Assembly: GCA_964655855.1 (NCBI GenBank)
Contig: CAZZPE010000007.1
Span: 12,341-76,340 of the forward strand
DNA: 64,000 nt
Direction: 5' to 3'
Source of the DNA: an uncultured Bifidobacteriaceae bacterium
GTDB taxonomy: Bacteria > Verrucomicrobiota > Verrucomicrobiia > Limisphaerales > UBA11358
Every line of letters begins with the position of its first letter. Positions within the stretch are counted from its first letter, which is position 1. The notes under the pieces were generated by a model, which had not been told where the DNA came from, did no database searches, and was given only the letters and a program-made list of their open reading frames with translations. Made by a program: the position numbers and the translations under genes. This document shows, in pieces, positions 823-40,304 of this stretch.

Positions 823-3800
823 TCAATGGGTGTCAGTCGCACGCAACACTACCGGCCCAAGCAGTCCGGATGGCAACAGTGAATCGCCGGGATGATAGGG
901 ATTATTGGTGGTCCACGTCAGGCGTTTTTCCAGCGGCAATGCAGAATCGGCGATGAGGCGGTTGACCCACGTGTTGACAACCCGAACTTCCAGCGTGTTC
1001 CGGCCCGGCTTCAATGCGCCGGTGACATCGAGCGCGTAAGGTTCTTTCCAGACGATGCCGAGGTCCTGTCCGTTGATTTTGACCGAGGCGAGCACCTCAA
1101 CTTTGCCGAGGTCGAGCATGATTGTCTCTCCCGGACGTAACGCTGGCATTTCAAATTCCTTGGTGTAAGTCGCCGAACCGGAGTAATCACGCACGCCGGC
1201 ATCCGGAAAATCCGTCCAGGAAACCAAATTGGTGAAAGTGACCTGTGCTGGCGCGCCCCATCCCGGCGTGAAGCGAACGTTCCACGGTCCGGTCAATGCC
1301 AGAAGTGTTGGCATGTCCGAGATGAGATTGGTTGTTGCCAGGGGTTGCGGCGTTGTCAGATTTTGCGCCTCCCGAAACACCACAAAGGCGGAAGCGTTTG
1401 CCTCCATTGTGAGCGGCACTTCGGTTCGGCCATTGATTTCGCGCCAGTTGCTGATTCCAGTTATCATTCCGGTGTCGGCGTCCCACCGCTCCGGAACGCG
1501 TCCCGCCACGCGGAACGCGGCGGTGACTTTTATGGCGCGAGGCTGGTGATTTGCCATAAAATAAATGTCGCTGTCTGCCGTCCGGCGGTGCGCATACAAG
1601 ATGTTCGTGACGGAGCTGTCACCGGTGATCTCAAAGTCGCGCGGCATGCCGATGGCCGCGAGCGCCTGCGCGGGTGTCATGCCCCACAGCATTCGCCCAG
1701 TTCCCGTCCAATGCCCGCCCGATGCCGGCAACGGGCCGCTGCCCCATAATTCGTCAGCGATTCGTCGCACTTCCTCATCGCCCGCTGCGCCGTCAGTCAG
1801 GGACGGCGACCCTGTGGGTTTGATCGGGCCAAGCACGGTGGCCCCGGCATTGACGAGCGCGCGGAGTCGTTTGGCGGCGGCGAGCGTCATCTGATTTCCA
1901 TCCGCAAGAATCAGCAGCCGGTAACTCATGCCGTCGGGCAGGACGATGAGCCCGTTTTTTACGCTCGCGCGCTTGATGAGCACTTCATCGCCGCAAACGT
2001 CGTAATCGTAGCCGGCGGGCGGCGCGGGCCGCATCCGCCAGGTGGCAATTTTGAGCGGCGTGTCGCTGCCTAGGTCATACAGAATATCGGCGACGGCATG
2101 ACCCTGACGCATGAGATAGGAAGAGCGCGCGAGTGAAGTCCAGAAACCGGCGCCGTCTTCCCACCAAGTGTTGTGCCGCTGATAAGGAACAAAAAATCTG
2201 TCCTGTGTGACACCAGGCAAACGGTCGTCCCATGGTTGATGAATATAGGCGAGCACGACGAACCGGTTGATTCCCAATGCCAGTGCCGCATCGGCGAACG
2301 GCTTCATCATTCCCGGATGGGCATCCGCGCGGCTGCCGGTGAACGATTCAGCGGCGGCGACGGGCTTGCCGTAAACGTGCGCCGCACTCGCGGTTTCCTT
2401 GCAGTCCATCGTGCCGTTGGGCTGGCTCATCCAGAACTCGCCCATCGGAATATCCGTCCAGCCTTTCGCTTGAATATTGTCGCTTGGCAGGCAGGTGGCG
2501 ATGCCGGGAGCCTCGGCCATTTCGGTCATTCCCTCAGCGTGGCAAAGGTTTTGGAATGTGCCGTAGTATTCCTCGCTCATCAGGTCGGCGATGGTTCGGC
2601 GGACATCGAACAGGAATTTATCCGATTGCTCGCGGCTGCCGACCACCCGGCCCATCATCGCTGGAAGAAAATTGCGCATGGAATAGCCGCGGCGTTTCTC
2701 GAACTGCGCCTCGAAACCCGGCGTCCAGTTCTGCGAACCGTGCTCCGCGCTGTCAATGTTGATGCCCGCAAGCTTCGCGCCTGGCACGCGGCGGACTTCA
2801 CGCAGAATGACGCCGACATAGTTTGTGAATTGAACCCGCGTGGCTTCAGCACTTAACTTGTCGGATTCGAGACCCAGGTTCTCCGGCCGGCCATGTTTTG
2901 TTCTGGCGCCGGTCGGCGTGTGGCCCAGTCGCAAAATCGTCCAGCTCCCCGGCGGCGCGTTCCACGTCAGTTTTCCATCCGCGCCGAGTTGTTTGGTGAG
3001 GTCGAGGATATTTGCCGGATCAATCACTTCTTTGCCGGAATAATCGGGCGTGCGGTCGGGATAGGAGAAGTCAACTACGTTGCCCGATTTCTTTTCCCAT
3101 TGGTCAATGCGCGCCTCGCCGTGCAACTCGACGCCGCCGATGACCAGATCGTCGTCATTCGCCAGGTAATTGTGTCCCCAGCCGTGGAAATTAAGCCGGA
3201 AGTATCGCGCGGTCGTCGCCGGAAACGCAACCGTCTGTGGCGTCCAACTATCCTGCAAGTAACCGGTGGCGGGCAATTCGCAGACAGAACGCCACACCTG
3301 GCCGTCGACACTCGCTTCCAGGCGGCCGATGGGCGGATTGAGCCGCATGTTCTGTCCGTAGAAATCATCTCTCCAAAACGTCGGCACCTGCGTGGCAATC
3401 ACGAGCGCTTTCGAGTTGAACCGGACCGAGTAAGTGAGGCTGCGCGCGGTGCATGGCCGGTCGTAATCGAGCTGAACCAACACCGGCCCTCCGTCAGTTG
3501 TTGGGTGGATGCGCGCCTTGGTTCTGTCGTCGGTGCTGAAAAGTTGCTCGAAATCAATTCCTGGCGGATTGCTCGTGTAAACCGGTTTTGGCAACGCCTC
3601 CGCTCCGCCGCCGGCGGGCGTCGGATAAGCGAGCACCGCAACGTCGCGATAATAGTTCAATTTGGCGGGTGGCTGCGGCAAAGCAATGGAAATGGAATGT
3701 CCGCCTTCAACCACCGTTTCGCTTGCGACGAGCCGCTGCATTCCCAGCGCTGGAGTAATCCACGGTCCGCCCGCGACATAACCGTCGCTCACGTTGACCT

Positions 3801-4177: not shown

Positions 4178-7100
4178 TTATGGAACCTGAATGAAGTAAA
4201 ATTGATTTGGTGTTCCGTTTGCGACGGAACTGGTCATTTGAAAGTTGCCCAGCAAATCAAAATGGTTCGTGGCTAGGCGCGCCCAATTTGACAACGACAG
4301 GGAGATATTGGTCGAGGTCAGGACAAAGTAGTTGCTCGTCGCCAGTCCACCAGCGCCGGTGAAGATAAAATTGGTCGAGACCATTGCGGTGGTGGAGATG
4401 ACCGGCTTGAATGCCAGCAAATTCACTTGCCCGGGAACATTCGTGGCGAGGAGGTATTTGAAACCGGGAGGCATCACACCCATCGCTAGGCTGCCGGAAA
4501 GCGTGCCGGTGTAGGTGAACAAGGTATTCGTCCTGGCCACCGGTCCGCCGATGTTGGTCGCATTCAACGTGCCGCCGAGGGCGAGATTGCCTTTCACCAC
4601 GATGCGGTCGTTGTTGGTGCCAAGACCGAAACTGGAAACGGATCCCGCAGCCAGCGTGAGATTGTTGCTGACGGTCAGCGTGCCAGCCGTCGCGTTGTTG
4701 GTGCCAGGCGAAATTGTGCCGCCCGCGAGGACGGAGACCGGGCCGTTGATGACGCCGACGCCCGCCAGCGTGCCGCCGGCGACGGTGACGGTGTTGGTGT
4801 AAAGCGAACCGTTGACCTGCAACGTCCCATTGCTGATGGTCGTGGCGCCACTATTGGTGCAGTTGCCATTTAGCGTGAGTGTGCCAGCGCCGGCTTTGAT
4901 GATGGCAGTGGCGCCGGATGAACCGTCTGAGATCTGCCCGTTGAATGTGGAATCAAAGCCGAGCGCACCGATGACATAGGTGGTTAGATTCGCATAACTG
5001 GAGGCGCCGGAGATTTTTGTCGAGGCACCTCCCGACAACGCACCGAGTTGAACGGTGATCCCGCCGTTGCGATTGTAAAGGTTGCCAGTGCTGTTGCCGA
5101 GGTCAAACCACGCGTTGGAGCCGCCCAGCGTGCCGTAAAACCGGCATGGCGCGCCATTGCCCGGCGCCCAAGCGATGGTTCCAGCAAACTCGCTCCAATC
5201 ACCGGCGGGCGTGAAAACGCCCGAACAGGTCGAGTTCAAATACAACGTGCCGCCGCCCGTCAGCGGCGCGGCCGGCGAGACATTGCCGGAGCCGCTGATC
5301 GTCCAGGTGTTGCTGCCGGAATTAACAATCGGATTCGTGAACGAAATGGTGTCTTCATTCAGCGTGCCGCCGCCGGTAAGTTGAATGCTGTTGTTGTCGG
5401 CAGAGTATTGGTTGTTGATTTGCAAAGTTCCACCGGCCACCGCCAAACCGCCGTTGAAAATATTTGTTCCGGACAAGGCAACGGTGCCAGGCCCGAGAAT
5501 CGTGATGCCATTGGTGCCGGAAATCGCTCCCGCCAAAGTCAGCGTGCCGGTGGAGAGGTTGCTGACGTCTAAATCGCTGTTCAAAATAACCGGCGTGGAA
5601 ATCGTGTCGCCCTTGCCGGCGGCCAATTCCACCAGCAACGCCTCGCCGGGCGTGTCGTCAAACGTCAGCGCGCCGCCATTGCCGGTGAGGTTGAACGCGC
5701 CGCCGGATGCGCCGAGGCTCAAATCCCCGACCGTGATGGACTGGTTCAGATTGATCGTCTGGCCGGCGGCGATGGGCGAATTGACAATCGCCGTCGCCTG
5801 CGTGGAATTGGGAAAGGCGGTGCCGTTGCTCCAATTGGTGTTCACATTCCAGCCTTGCGCGGAAGTCGTTATGGCGTTGATCCAATAAATCGGCGGCGGC
5901 CCGGAAAATGGAATAGCGCTGGCTTCCGGCGAATAAATACTGTTGCCTCCCGTGCTTACGGCATAAACGACATAGAAGTAATTCGTTCCGTTCCGCAGGC
6001 CCGTGTCGGTGTAAGTCGTGTTGGTCGTGGCGGCCACCACGAACGTTTCATAGCCGCTGTTTGTGCCGCGCAGAATGACGTAATTCGTGGCGCCGATGAC
6101 TGGACTCCACCGCAGTGAAATTTGCGCGTTGCCCGGATAAGCGTTCAGGCTGGCCGGCGCAGCCGGCGGCGTGCTGACGATGGTGGAATTGCCCGAAACT
6201 CCGCCGGCGTTCATCGCGATGACCGTGTAGGAAAAAAGCGTGTTGGAACTCAATCCGCCATCGGTGTAGTTCGTCGTGGTCATGCTCAACACATAATTGG
6301 TCGGAAACGAAAACGGCCCGGCGGGACTGTTGCTGGCGCGGTAGAGAATATAGCCAACCGCGCCGCTCACCGGCGACCAGGTGACAAAGACCGACTGGTT
6401 CGTGCTGGTGACGGTGGTTTTAATGGAAACATTTGCCGGCGGCGTGGCGGGCGGTGGCGGAACCGGTTTGGCCGTGACCGCCGCCGAAGCGCCGCTGGTG
6501 CCACCGGCGCTGGTGGCTGTCACGAAATAGCTGTAAGTGCAACCCAAGGTTCCCGAAGCATCGGTGTAAGTGGTGTTGGTGGTCGTGTTGCTCAAGGTGA
6601 TATAAAAAGGAACATAGCCAAGCAGATTGACCACGGTGCCGCGCTGAACGGTGTAGTAATTTGCTCCTGGCGAAGCGCTCCACGCCAGCGTCACGGCGTT
6701 GTTGGTGCTGGTGACGGTCAAGCCAGTCGGTGTGGCTGGAGTCGAGGTGGAAAACCCCGATGAAGGAGTCACGCCACCGCTGGCCGGTGAGTTGGTGCTG
6801 CTGCCAACAGGGTTTGCCGACTGCACTTTGTAGTAATAAGTGGTGTTATTCGCAGCGCTGTTGTCAACATAAGTGGCGTTCTGTGGGCCGCTGCCGCAAA
6901 CCGGACCAGTCACCCCGTTCGTAATGGAAACATAACCAGTGCCGGAAGTAGTTGATCGAAGGATGTTATAGCTCGTTGCGCCGGGCGTGACCGGCCAGCT
7001 TAAGAGAACAGCGTTGTTGCCGGCATAAGCGGCAATCCCGGCCGGCGTCGGCGGCACATAGCCGGTGAGTTCGAGCCGGATATAGTCATACATGAATTGG

Positions 7101-15706: not shown

Positions 15707-16735
15707 ATGACGGTTGAACCCATCTATCGGGCTGGCCGGACGCAGTTGCGAATTGACACCTGCGCGCCGCAGTTTGCCGCCATGCGCGGCGGAAAAATCA
15801 AGCTGCACGCGCTGACCAGGGGGCATTACCCCGGCATTTTTCTCAAGCCCGCCGAACTGCCGGGCATCAACAGCATCGGCTTTTGGAACGGCACCAGCAC
15901 CCAGGATTGGGGGCTTGAACCGCACCGGAATGAAGGCATCGAAATCGTTTTTCTGGAAACCGGCGCGATGGCATTTTCCGTCGAGGCGAAGCCATTTCAA
16001 CTTCGTGCCGGCCATTTCACGGTGACCCGCCCGTGGCAGTTGCACCGGCTCGGCGCGCCGAACATCGGGCCGGGAAAACTCCACTGGCTCATCCTCGATG
16101 TCGGTGTGCGTCGCCCGAATCAGGATTGGCGCTGGCCGCGTTGGCTCACGCTGACCGCCGCCGACCGGGGCGAGCTGACACGAAAACTGCGGCAAAACGA
16201 GAATCCGGTCTGGGATTCCTCGCCCGAAATTGCCGCCGCCTTTCGCGGGTTGTCCGACGGCGTGCTGCGCTGGCGCGAGCCGCACATCGAATCGCGGATG
16301 CTCGTCCTGCTGAACCAGCTTCTCCTTGGCATTCTTACCGCCCTCACCGAACAGCAAAAGCAGCGCAACCCCGACCTCATTTCGCGCCAGCGCACGGTGG
16401 AATTATTTCTACGCGACCTCGCCGCGAACGCCGCCAGCAGCAGCCAGCCTTGGACGCTGCAAAAAATGGCGGCGCACTGCGGCATGGGCATCACCGTGTT
16501 TTCAAAATACTGCCGCGCACTTGTGAACAACGGCCCGGTCGAATACTTGAACCGCTGCCGGCTCAACCGCGCCGCGCAGCAGCTCGATGAAAATCCGGAA
16601 CTGCCGGTGACAGAAATCGGCTTGCAGAACGGCTTCAATTCCAGTCAATACTTCGCCACGGTGTTTCGCCGGCGTTTCAAGCAAACGCCCCGCGCTTACC
16701 GGGGAAACCGGAAGCGCCCGGCACAGGCCTTTTGA
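15707..16735 (+). CDS. AraC-family transcriptional regulator (cupin-like sensor plus HTH)
   Basis: ATG at 15707 (MTVEPIY), chosen because the longer ORF from 15485 overlaps the divergent GH gene. C-terminal AraC HTH motif: LQNGFNSSQYFATVFRRRFKQTPRAYR. Divergent from the CAZyme cluster. Confidence 0.8.
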   Translation: MTVEPIYRAGRTQLRIDTCAPQFAAMRGGKIKLHALTRGHYPGIFLKPAELPGINSIGFWNGTSTQDWGLEPHRNEGIEIVFLETGAMAFSVEAKPFQLRAGHFTVTRPWQLHRLGAPNIGPGKLHWLILDVGVRRPNQDWRWPRWLTLTAADRGELTRKLRQNENPVWDSSPEIAAAFRGLSDGVLRWREPHIESRMLVLLNQLLLGILTALTEQQKQRNPDLISRQRTVELFLRDLAANAASSSQPWTLQKMAAHCGMGITVFSKYCRALVNNGPVEYLNRCRLNRAAQQLDENPELPVTEIGLQNGFNSSQYFATVFRRRFKQTPRAYRGNRKRPAQAF

Positions 16736-16934: not shown

Positions 16935-17744
16935 TCACGCCGCTTGCCGCCGGATTGCGCCATCCGCCTCCATTCTGGCGACGAGCGGGAAAACGTCGCG
17001 TTGCAGGCAGAACGCCACGTCGTCGCGCAGTTCTGGAATTGCCAGCAGCCGCCGTGCGTTCGTGGAAGTCTGAAACGCGCCCGCCACATCCGCCTTTGCC
17101 TGCGCCCACGCGCGCCGGGCGATTTCTGCTGAATCAGATGTTTTGGCAGGGACGGCGCGCTGCGCCGTCCGGTTATCGCAGCGCGATGACCCTGCCTCCA
17201 GCAATTCGCACAGCGCGCCCGCCGCCAGCGCGTCCTCCAGTGCCGCGTCTTCGTGCGTGCCGGCGCAGACGAGCAGCACCTCCGCCGGCTGAAGCTTTCT
17301 GATGAATTCCGCCGTCGCGCCGAGATTCAAAAAGGAACCGGCCAGAACCGTCTTTGCGCCCGCGCAGGCGCGCAAGGCGCGGGTGCCGTTCGTCGTGGTG
17401 GAAACAATCGTCCGGCCGCGCACCATTTCGGGCGTGCATTCGCGCGGCGAATTGCCGAGGTCAAAATCAATTCCGCCGGTCTGCGCGGCACGGATTTTCA
17501 CGCCGCCCCGCTCGCCACCGAGTAAAATGGTTTCTGCTTTCCGCTTTCCGCTTTCCGCTTTCTTGAAAGCCAGCGCCTCGGCGATTTCGCTGACCGGAAC
17601 GACGGCCGTCGCGCCGTTGTGGAGCGCGGTCACAATCGTGCTCGTGGCGCGCAGCACGTCGAACACGACGCAGCACGTTTCGCGCAAATCGCGCCGGGCG
17701 AGCGCGGGCAGTTCCGCCGGCGTCAGGATGGTTTCAATTTTCAT
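16935..17744 (-). CDS. comB: 2-phosphosulfolactate phosphatase family protein
   Basis: ComB motifs: CVVFDVLRATSTIVTALHNGA, LLGGERGG, FDLGNSPRE. Contains an in-frame heptamer repeat at 17531-17564. Confidence 0.75.
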   Translation of the reverse strand: MKIETILTPAELPALARRDLRETCCVVFDVLRATSTIVTALHNGATAVVPVSEIAEALAFKKAESGKRKAETILLGGERGGVKIRAAQTGGIDFDLGNSPRECTPEMVRGRTIVSTTTNGTRALRACAGAKTVLAGSFLNLGATAEFIRKLQPAEVLLVCAGTHEDAALEDALAAGALCELLEAGSSRCDNRTAQRAVPAKTSDSAEIARRAWAQAKADVAGAFQTSTNARRLLAIPELRDDVAFCLQRDVFPLVARMEADGAIRRQAA

Positions 17745-33945: not shown

Positions 33946-35070
33946 TCAGATCTCCAGCACTTTCTCAAACCGCGTCAGGTTGCGCGCGCCGTTGCCGGTG
34001 ACGAGCGCGACATCCTCCAGCCGCACGCCGCCGATTTCGGGATAGTAAAGCCCCGGCTCGACGGTCACGACGTGGCCGGGCCGCAGCCGGCCCGCCGAGG
34101 TCGCGCCCAGCCGCGGCGCCTCGTGGACTTCCAGGCCGAGTCCGTGGCCGGTGCCGTGAAAAAAGCCCTCCATCCGCCCGTCGTGCCGTCCGGTTTTGTA
34201 GCCCTGCCGGACAAAAAATTCCTGCACGGCCTTGTGAACCTCCGCCGTCGGCACGTTGGCGCGAATTTTCTCAAAGCCGATTTTTTGCCCGTGCCAGACG
34301 GTGTCGTAAAGTTTCCTCACCGCCTCGCCCGCGTGTCCGCGCACGACGGTGCGGGTGATGTCGCCAAAGTAGCCGGTTTTTTGCGAGCGCGGAAAGATGT
34401 CAATGACGACCGGCTCGTTGGCGCGCAGCGGGCCGTGGCCGCGCTCGTGCGGATCGCAGGCCTGCCGGCCGCCGGCGACGATGGTGTTCGCCGCCAGGCC
34501 GTGCGCCTGCAGGATCGCGCAGTCAATCACCGAGCGCAGTTTTTCCGACGTGAGCGTGAGGCCGTGGTAAATGAGCCGGCGGTTGCGGCCGATTTTGGAG
34601 CGGCGCAGGACTTCCATGCCCTCGGCCATGCCGACCTCGGCCATCGTCAGCGCGGCGGAGATTTTCCGGACCTCGTCGGCGGACTTGATTTCGCGCTTCG
34701 GGAAAACGGCGGCGCGCGGCTTGAGCTTGACGCCGAGTTTTTTCAATTCCTTCGCCAGACCCAGCGGGAAATTGTCCGGCACCACGGCGCGGCGGATTTT
34801 CTGCTCGCGCAAAATCTGCCGGATGACGCGCGCGAAGCCGGGCGATTTGACGCCGTCGCGCCGGAGTTTTTGCTGGCAGGCGCTCAACGACACGGCGTGG
34901 CAGTGCGGCGCATTGGCGCGGGCGCGGTCAATCTCCAGGTCGCTCATCACGAGCAGCGGGCGCCCGCCGAAGTTGAGGTAGATGAACGGGTCGGGCACGA
35001 ACAGGCCGGTGGCGTAAAGCATGTTCGCGTCACGCTCGCTGTCGGCGACGATGAGCAGGGTTTCTGACAT
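33946..35070 (-). CDS. Xaa-Pro aminopeptidase (M24B family)
   Basis: M24 metal-binding motifs: VVIDIFPRSQKTGYFGDITRT, HGTGHGLGLEVHE, VVTVEPGLY. Confidence 0.85.
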   Translation of the reverse strand: MSETLLIVADSERDANMLYATGLFVPDPFIYLNFGGRPLLVMSDLEIDRARANAPHCHAVSLSACQQKLRRDGVKSPGFARVIRQILREQKIRRAVVPDNFPLGLAKELKKLGVKLKPRAAVFPKREIKSADEVRKISAALTMAEVGMAEGMEVLRRSKIGRNRRLIYHGLTLTSEKLRSVIDCAILQAHGLAANTIVAGGRQACDPHERGHGPLRANEPVVIDIFPRSQKTGYFGDITRTVVRGHAGEAVRKLYDTVWHGQKIGFEKIRANVPTAEVHKAVQEFFVRQGYKTGRHDGRMEGFFHGTGHGLGLEVHEAPRLGATSAGRLRPGHVVTVEPGLYYPEIGGVRLEDVALVTGNGARNLTRFEKVLEI

Positions 35071-39303: not shown

Positions 39304-40209
39304 TCAAAGCCTTGCGTTGTCAATCAACCGCGTTTTGCCGACGAACACCGCCAGCGCCATGTGGGTGCCGCGTTTTACCCGGGCGACCGGAGTCAGCGTT
39401 TCGGGATCGAAAAATTCCACGTAGTCCAGCCGGGCCTGCGGAGATGCGGTGAAAAATTCCTTCAGGTCGGCCTTCAGGCGCGCGGCGGAAACGGGTTTTT
39501 TTGCCACCGCTGCCTTCACCGCCTGCAATGCGTGAAACAAAATCACCGCCTGCGCCCGCTGTTCCGCGTCGAGAAATTTGTTCCGCGAACTCATCGCCAG
39601 CCCGTCCGGTTCCCGCAGCGTCGGCGCGACGATGATTTTCACCGGGAAATTCAAGTCGGCGACCATGCGCCGGATGATGGCCGCCTGCTGGAAATCTTTC
39701 TGGCCGAACACCGCCACGTCCGGCAGCACGAGGTTGAACAGCTTGGCCACCACCGTCGTCACGCCGCGAAAATGCACGGGCCGTGCCGCGCCTTCCATGG
39801 TTCGCGACAGTTTTTCCTCGACGACGTAAGTGCTGAAGTTTTGGAGTGCGCCGACATGTCGGCGCTTTGAAAGCGGTGACATGTCACCGCAATCCAAAGT
39901 CGAATACATTTCCCCGTCGTTTGGTGTGAACACCGCGTCCACGCCGGCTTCGCGGCACAATTTCAAATCGCGTTTCAGGTCGCGAGGATATTTGGCAAGG
40001 TCTTCCGTCGGCGCGAACTGCGTCGGGTTGACATAAATGCTGACGACAACCTTGCCGTTTTTGCCGGCGCGCCGGCGCGCCTCGCGCACGAGGCTCAAAT
40101 GGCCGGCGTGCAAATAGCCCATTGTCGGCACAAAACCGACGCGAAGGCCACGGCGCTTCAGTGACATCGCAAATTGCTGCATGGCGGCCGCGCTTGAAAT
40201 GACTCGCAT
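39304..40209 (-). CDS. panC: Pantoate--beta-alanine ligase
   Basis: VPTMGYLHAGHLSL, RPVHFRGVTTVVAKLFN and FGQKDFQQ motifs. Carries an in-frame palindromic insert at about 39839-39899. Confidence 0.9.
   Translation of the reverse strand: MRVISSAAAMQQFAMSLKRRGLRVGFVPTMGYLHAGHLSLVREARRRAGKNGKVVVSIYVNPTQFAPTEDLAKYPRDLKRDLKLCREAGVDAVFTPNDGEMYSTLDCGDMSPLSKRRHVGALQNFSTYVVEEKLSRTMEGAARPVHFRGVTTVVAKLFNLVLPDVAVFGQKDFQQAAIIRRMVADLNFPVKIIVAPTLREPDGLAMSSRNKFLDAEQRAQAVILFHALQAVKAAVAKKPVSAARLKADLKEFFTASPQARLDYVEFFDPETLTPVARVKRGTHMALAVFVGKTRLIDNARL
39839..39899. repeat. Double 18-bp perfect palindrome (REP-like) inside panC
   Basis: gcgccgacatgtcggcgc (39848-39865) and gcggtgacatgtcaccgc (39873-39890), flanked by tttgga / tccaaa. 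Confidence 0.85.
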
Positions 40210-40244: not shown

Positions 40245-40282
40245 GAAAGAAAAAGCCGCGCCGGAAAGCAACGGCGCGGCTT
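40245..40282 (-). terminator. Rho-independent terminator candidate after the glutaredoxin-like gene
   Basis: On the minus strand: agccgcgcc gttgctttcc ggcgcggct, followed by ttttctttcg. Confidence 0.65.
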
Positions 40283-40304
40283 CTGTCCCCACCTCAAATT
40301 CAGT

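Follow-up and report, generated by a model that had tools for sequence, protein, structure and literature searches.

A REP-like palindromic repeat carried in frame by panC of a Verrucomicrobiota genome, at a site where unrelated hairpin cassettes replace one another

In the 64-kb stretch of DNA that was analyzed (the window), the pantoate-beta-alanine ligase gene panC contains a 59-nt palindromic element inside its coding sequence. The features of this locus, in window coordinates, were as follows.

39304 to 40209, minus strand: panC (pantoate-beta-alanine ligase), intact open reading frame of 301 aa, host of the 59-nt element
39840 to 39898: complete element of 59 nt, in which two REP-like units form a dimer joined tail to tail and an outer inverted repeat is present, encoding LDCGDMSPLSKRRHVGALQ
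39840 to 39847: outer head arm TTTGGAGT, identical to the family consensus TTTGGAGT
39848 to 39865: core of unit 1, perfect 18-nt palindrome GCGCCGACATGTCGGCGC, read in the window as gcgccgacatgtcggcgc
39866 to 39872: 7-nt spacer TTTGAAA between the units, where the long hairpin has its apical loop region
39873 to 39890: core of unit 2, perfect 18-nt palindrome GCGGTGACATGTCACCGC, read in the window as gcggtgacatgtcaccgc
39891 to 39898: outer head arm AATCCAAA, family consensus ACTCCAAA, with one mismatch to the other arm

The ORF at 39304-40209 matched the T. maritima PanC structure 2ejc over residues 1-299 with E=3e-77 (phmmer to PDB). The Pfam family PF02569 was detected in 120/120 of the closest homologs of the window PanC, which shared 74-100% identity and came from Verrucomicrobiota/Limisphaerales MAGs. 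The motif columns H34/G36/H37 (HxGH) and S207-N210 (SSRN) were invariant in the PanC alignment (A1), and the full-length family match together with intact catalytic motifs placed the protein in PF02569. Some other features of the gene and its surroundings were observed. A terminator-like hairpin with a 13-bp stem and a T-run lies on the minus strand at 40251-40284, immediately upstream of panC, as it does in L211/L212; it was the sole strong terminator-like hairpin found by the terminator/promoter scan and is probably the ordinary terminator of the upstream glutaredoxin gene. Within panC, a perfect 16-nt palindrome GGCGCGCCGGCGCGCC occupies window positions 40066-40081 (codons ..RRRAGK..), where the window PanC is 3 aa longer than that of T. 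maritima; it may be a chance product of GC-rich sequence. Nucleotide differences from the panC genes of L207 and L208, which agree with each other there, were clustered at ~39500-39550 (PanC residues ~221-236), which may represent a tract of recombination independent of the element.

The original prediction had described two perfect palindromes of 18 nt with a common core and a TTTGGA/TCCAAA bracket, lying in frame in panC. Reading of the sequence and a pattern search confirmed this description: both palindromes have GACATGTC in common, tttgga and tccaaa stand at 39840-45 and 39893-98, and the 301-aa ORF passes through the element with the translation ...EMYSTLDCGDMSPLSKRRHVGALQNFSTYV... across the region. 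The encoded LDCGDMSPLSKRRHVGALQ corresponds to PanC residues 105-123, and the gap against 2ejc to 104-122. As a whole, 39840-39898 was scored by the repeat finder as an inverted repeat with 29-nt arms and 83% complementarity. The expectation of two strong mRNA hairpins held for the strength of folding but not for the shape of the best fold, since the minimum-energy structure of the mRNA strand was one extended 59-nt hairpin (-34.8 kcal/mol, z=-6.2) in which the palindromes pair together; the single long hairpin and the two-hairpin fold are both possible. The DNA strand gave an agreeing result (z=-6.4). Two perfect 18-nt palindromes with this z-score of -6.2 represent the short GC-rich stem-loop of a REP/BIME-like unit, and the tail-to-tail dimer of the window copy represents the inverted-dimer arrangement of such units.

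When up to 2 mismatches were allowed, the palindrome pattern matched twice in 64 kb, both times in the element, while 0.12 matches were expected by chance and 2/100 shuffles reached two matches. Scans of the window with the pattern at up to 2 mismatches, with the GACATGTC core, for perfect hairpins and for the peptide motif in six frames revealed no other copy and returned only an unrelated element in comB, so that panC holds the one copy of this family in the window. A peptide-motif match, RRHVGA at 34246, looked like chance and was discarded.

The element is located between the EMYP and FSTYV blocks of PanC. Compared to 2ejc the loop contained 19 additional residues, and compared to solved PanC structures generally 18-19, exactly at the element; the excess was 17 aa over E. 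coli PanC and 15 aa over the closest insert-free relatives (286 aa), whose loop reads PGKAEGRYSTYV. The spacer predicted to be ~17 aa longer than in E. coli is thus 15-19 aa longer across these alignments. A loop of equal length and similar sequence in palindrome-free relatives would have spoken against an insertion, and the loop of these relatives proved to be 15 aa shorter. Such short-loop homologs, with EMYPGKAEGRYSTYV and 286 aa, accounted for 11/120 of the closest homologs. In this way, panC presents an in-frame repeat in an intact conserved gene that is absent from orthologs, as in RPE-like elements. The alleles with an insert are without the native GKAEGR codons; a simple insertion into an empty site was therefore rejected, and the events at the PanC site are replacements.

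A scan of ~186,000 species genomes for GCGSYGACATGTCRSCGC returned at least 120 loci. Among the matches listed, 60 had the same GGAGT/ACTCC bracket and yielded the unit consensus TTTGGAGTGCGGCGACATGTCGCCGCTTT, in which the head TTTGGAGT immediately precedes the stem GCGGCGAC; a second inverted unit followed 41 of the 61 family units listed, making them dimers, and the spacer consensus across the family was TTTsAAA. The label Verrucomicrobiota was attached to 46/60 of the bracketed loci among the matches listed, with several loci per MAG (at least 4 in PSRM01 and at least 3 in CBINNW, for example), and covered Udaeobacter, Chthoniobacteraceae, Limisphaerales, Akkermansia, Opitutus and SPRUCE peat MAGs. 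Outside panC, the stem subtype to which the window copy belongs (GGTGAC plus GCCGAC) was found in L095, L107, L113, L139, L146, L160 and L177, and the MAG of L086 (SPRUCE 686), in which panC bears the same insert type as the window, has a further copy elsewhere (L199). No panC locus was among the matches listed and the scan consequently gives no estimate of copies per genome; as the window has a single copy, high copy number holds for the family and not for this genome. Copies of the family were found between genes as well as within many genes, and in-frame copies with Pfam domains on both sides were found in PdxJ, RibD, an amidohydrolase, an ABC exporter and a glycogen debranching enzyme. The genome search thus revealed a dispersed family with some copies in frame in real genes, and the proposal of a REP-like element inserted in frame was supported by the ortholog alignment, by this family and by its other in-frame copies.

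The family copies had no GTAG at the stem end, and CGTC was present only in some central-core variants. The 61 copies among the matches listed had no conserved or duplicated flanking bases and hence no target-site duplication, and no Y1/HUH transposase (RAYT) appeared in the Pfam annotation of neighbouring genes. The remaining 60 loci among the matches listed were 18-mers without the bracket, within coding sequence from other phyla, and look like chance. Since about half of the listed scan matches were isolated GCGCCGACATGTCGGCGC-type sequences without the flanking motif, single 18-mers can arise by chance, and the pair in panC might likewise be an accident of GC-rich coding sequence or an artefact of assembly. 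The two adjacent copies, however, carry the head motifs of the family, only 0.12 pattern matches were expected in the window, and assemblies produced independently (JGI, ENA and NCBI) carry the same element at this codon. Pattern expectation, family motifs and independent assemblies together refuted this explanation, which we consider to have virtually no probability.

Copies with the GGAGT/ACTCC bracket were also observed in L088, L090, L108, L176, L179, L189, L195, L196 and L204, and in L201, where the copy was missed by the head/tail filter. The MAGs of these loci were labelled Haliangium, Zixiibacteriota, Gallionellaceae, betaproteobacterium, Baltobacteraceae, Bifidobacteriaceae and Aminicenantes; these copies represent either mis-binned Verrucomicrobial contigs or a spread of the family across phyla. 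In L038, a GTAG-19-like long hairpin (GTGVPPV..TGGTPVPL) at 16204-16461 joins the truncated duplicate N-terminus of an ABC ATPase to the full-length gene, a possible case of repeat-associated partial duplication.

The PanC site of the homologs was occupied by at least 8 unrelated insert types or by none. The types were distinguished by their encoded peptides.

Type A: CGDMSPLSKRRHVGALQ, the type of the window
Type B: SSRCDDRTAQRAVP
Type C: WGEATDEP..ARGDARPT
Type D: GTGVSPV..TGETPVPL
Type E: SRRCESADDPRFDKRGY
Type F: WGESLSSP..GSTESRPT
Type G: low-complexity, e.g. RKSEIGNRKS
Further types: in L010 and L028

Most of the PanC-site inserts examined formed strong single or double hairpins at the DNA level, from -25 to -56 kcal/mol; type G was the one type that formed no strong hairpin (~-6.5 kcal/mol), and a few other inserts folded more weakly, at -14 to -22 kcal/mol. 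Types B and D were also dispersed elsewhere, and type D corresponds to the GTAG-19 REP peptides GTGVPPV/TGGTPVP of Opitutus terrae. Type A copies, apparently intergenic, were nested in the loop of the type C hairpin in L095 (~3070-3210) and L105 (~5190-5300), which suggests that hairpin loops are preferred targets.

Insert type differed in 201/264 pairs of homologs that were at least 92% identical outside the site, including pairs with identities of 99.1% (none vs E), 98.2% (D vs none) and 96.6% (A vs D), and the types were interleaved on an NJ tree built without the site. At the nucleotide level, the window panC was 92.3% identical to that of L207 (type B), 91.9% to that of L208 (empty) and 86.4% to the nearest type A gene. 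Vertical descent from a single ancient insertion was rejected as the whole story, since type B or no insert is what the nearest relatives have. L211 and L212 were ~98% identical in nucleotides over the gene and its flanks, with the segment from GAAATGTATCC to GTCGTCGAGG wholly replaced (31 nt vs 70 nt). SNPs were only mildly enriched near the cassette in a manual count on the L211/L212 alignment, which is at most suggestive of an import of cassettes by recombination; a low-power comparison lent import no support, as no excess linkage of the flanks with insert type was detected, nearest neighbours sharing the insert type at 0.43 when defined by 20-aa flanks and at 0.48 when defined by distal sequence. 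The PanC site thus behaves as a replaceable cassette and not as a one-off target. The insertion event originally proposed stands in the comparison with orthologs, but not as a simple, single event, for the site holds different palindromic elements in close relatives.

The same behaviour was found at a second gene of the window.

16935 to 17744, minus strand: comB-like gene (2-phosphosulfolactate phosphatase), 269 aa, host of a type B element
17142 to 17197, minus strand: double-hairpin element of type B, unrelated to the panC element, in frame in comB, encoding GSSRCDNRTAQRAVP

By blastn, the 17142-17197 element shared 92-98% identity with the inserts that L009/L026/L051 carry in panC, and the Pfam domain PF04029 spans its site in ComB. 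The ComB loop was of type B in 78 of 120 homologs, an RGDARPT remnant in 12, APLTPSLSPLGRGEGVRRTGEG in 10, type A in 8 and RWGETTGEP.. in 6, with nothing or a very short loop in 2. Outside the site, the window ComB shared 97.8% identity with a protein that carries another cassette. The comB site behaves like the panC site, and cassette swapping is in this sense general. These two were the only REP-like elements in the 64-kb window and both are intragenic, with no intergenic copy of any of these repeat families in the window; the surviving copies in this genome may be those locked inside genes.

Conservation of the element was compared with that of its host gene. In six type A panC genes, the mean identity was 95.2% in the element (93.7% at third positions) vs 76.5% in the rest of the gene (60.8%), and the element was the most conserved 19-codon window of panC at third positions. 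Between the window and L086, 51/51 core nucleotides were identical while the genes were 73% identical, and the differences resumed at the element edges. Such over-conservation fits recent spread, gene conversion or a constraint on DNA/RNA, and does not fit protein selection. Together with the presence of an insert in ~90% of close homologs, the conservation of third positions could alternatively reflect selection for structure. The hairpin in panC mRNA or DNA would then be selected itself, for mRNA stability, translational pausing between subdomains or as a protein-binding site, each lineage having recruited whatever palindromic repeat was available, and the peptide would be incidental. Consistent with this are the 109/120 closest homologs that carry some insert, of at least 7 unrelated and mostly hairpin-forming types, the third positions of type A far above synonymous sites (93.7% vs 60.8%), and the strong fold (z=-6.2). 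However, hairpin-free alleles occur in many distant relatives and also in genomes with a PanC that shares 97-99% identity with insert-bearing proteins, so the hairpin is dispensable, and the unrelated comB shows the same swapping. The elements are moreover ordinary dispersed repeats, with intergenic copies as well as copies in many genes, palindrome-disrupting point changes in L081 and L085 were uncompensated, no terminator or promoter signal overlapped the element in the terminator/promoter scan, and no Rfam family reached the gathering score anywhere in the 64-kb window. We therefore judge selection of the hairpin unlikely, and prefer a repeat that is tolerated by its host gene.

The insert is situated in the N-terminal catalytic domain of PanC, and its peptide CGDMSPLSKRRHVGALQ is nearly invariant in 49 homologs, as might be expected if the loop were adaptive, providing a new interaction or a regulation of PanC and being kept by amino-acid selection. 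An AlphaFold model of PanC (38-sequence alignment) had a mean pLDDT of 79.6 and values of <50 over residues 104-135, and placed the insert after strand 92-94 and helix 98-101, between the conserved blocks. The low pLDDT also spans the native residues 124-135, so that the model positions the loop only imprecisely and does not establish its exposure at the surface. The low-confidence prediction at the insert argues against an adaptive loop, and so does the alternation of unrelated peptides, or no peptide, in near-identical enzymes. The synonymous positions are conserved too, which protein selection leaves unexplained, and the same peptides occur in unrelated proteins as translations of the repeats. 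An adaptive role of the loop is accordingly highly improbable, and the tolerated repeat remains the preferred reading.

Classical REPs are extragenic and GTAG-tagged, and are paired with RAYT transposases (REPtrons). The window family resembles the REP/BIME elements of E. coli and Pseudomonas in its hairpin unit of 20-40 nt, its inverted dimers, its dispersal and its nesting or insertion at other hairpins, but differs from classical REPs in that the copy in the window is intragenic and without the GTAG tag. With MITEs (Correia, ERIC, Nezha) it has in common that it is non-autonomous, bears terminal inverted repeats (TTTGGAGT/ACTCCAAA) and sometimes forms in-frame fusions. Typical MITEs are 70-300 bp; at 59 nt the element is shorter, there is no target-site duplication in the consensus flanks, and it was not classed as a MITE.

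Closer parallels are found among intragenic repeats. In Opitutus terrae, ~70 in-frame REPs of the GTAG-17/18/19 families have been described (Di Nocera, De Gregorio and Rocco 2013, BMC Genomics 14:522, PMC3733652), which are short GC-rich hairpins, often dimers encoding 20-30 residues, in housekeeping genes. The element in panC is similar in phylum, in its GC-rich hairpin dimer and in its in-frame position in a housekeeping gene, and the GTAG-19 peptides in that listing correspond to the PanC-site type D (GTGVSPV...TGETPVPL) (PMC3733652). Unlike those families, the window family has a GGAGT head and a GACATGTC core and no GTAG/CGTC tag, which leaves it outside the GTAG-/CGTC-tagged superfamily, and it is absent from that listing (PMC3733652). 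Nor is panC among the O. terrae genes listed; the sole entry for a pantothenate synthetase concerns Citrobacter koseri, where a REP occupies residues 1-10 at the annotated N-terminus (PMC3733652). Because it has no GTAG/CGTC tag, and neither the family nor panC is listed there, the window family is set apart from the published O. terrae REPs. Different REPs at about the same site were reported for Xanthomonas recB, while the paper does not describe near-identical orthologs in which many families are systematically swapped at one codon site (PMC3733652).

The Rickettsia RPEs (Ogata et al. 2000) are palindromic selfish DNA in frame in essential genes, and the segment that they encode was judged compatible with the protein fold (PMC10969869, PMC3733652). 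Like these, the window element is palindromic, lies in frame in an essential gene and is translated as an extra segment. It differs in length and host, being 59 nt in a free-living soil/peat Verrucomicrobiota, whereas the RPE-1 type is ~100-150 bp in an obligate intracellular alphaproteobacterium (PMC10969869, PMC3733652), and also in that one PanC site is occupied by many families. In-frame palindromic repeats are thus known, and what is new here relative to those listings is this untagged family and panC as its host. Unusually, many families turn over fast at one site.

Taken together, we consider it probable (about 0.78) that the panC element is a dispersed Verrucomicrobiota REP-like selfish repeat, tolerated in frame in a loop of PanC at a site under frequent cassette exchange. 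The element would originate as selfish DNA without coding function, consisting of two GGAGT-headed hairpin units in inverted orientation, and would have come to occupy a loop of PanC that is apparently tolerant, in frame and without stops. Because its reading frame has no stops, ~19 extra residues are translated and PanC stays intact; the encoded peptide would be a passenger without a function of its own. Cassettes may be exchanged by homologous recombination through the conserved codons that flank the site, and/or a REP-type (RAYT-like) transposase may re-insert them under the direction of the hairpin. That the element is nearly identical in diverged panC genes would reflect recent spread, gene conversion or a constraint on the hairpin DNA, and not a constraint on the protein.

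A further-reaching and rather doubtful possibility is that certain loops of housekeeping genes, such as those of PanC and ComB, are dedicated landing or exchange sites where unrelated REP-type hairpins interchange on the timescale of strain divergence. If this were true, random insertion with a filter for tolerance would be insufficient and an active, structure-directed process would be implied. In one candidate process, a RAYT-like enzyme would target hairpins for insertion or replacement; in another, palindromes would induce breaks, and ectopic or foreign sequences would serve as templates for the repair. To our knowledge, REP mobility is hard to observe directly and the movement of REP-type elements is still poorly documented, and such sites would serve as a natural assay for it.

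One codon position in the essential PanC, and another in ComB, hold many alternative inserts across hundreds of metagenomic relatives. As the states differ between genes that are 97-99% identical, they provide a dated series of events in which inserts were gained, lost or replaced. This series could reveal what such elements target, whether they move by transposition or recombination and what they cost, and could also serve as a strain-level marker. In practical terms, CGDMSPLSKRRHVGALQ, SSRCDDRTAQRAVP, ARGDARPT and others are translated repeats and not protein motifs.
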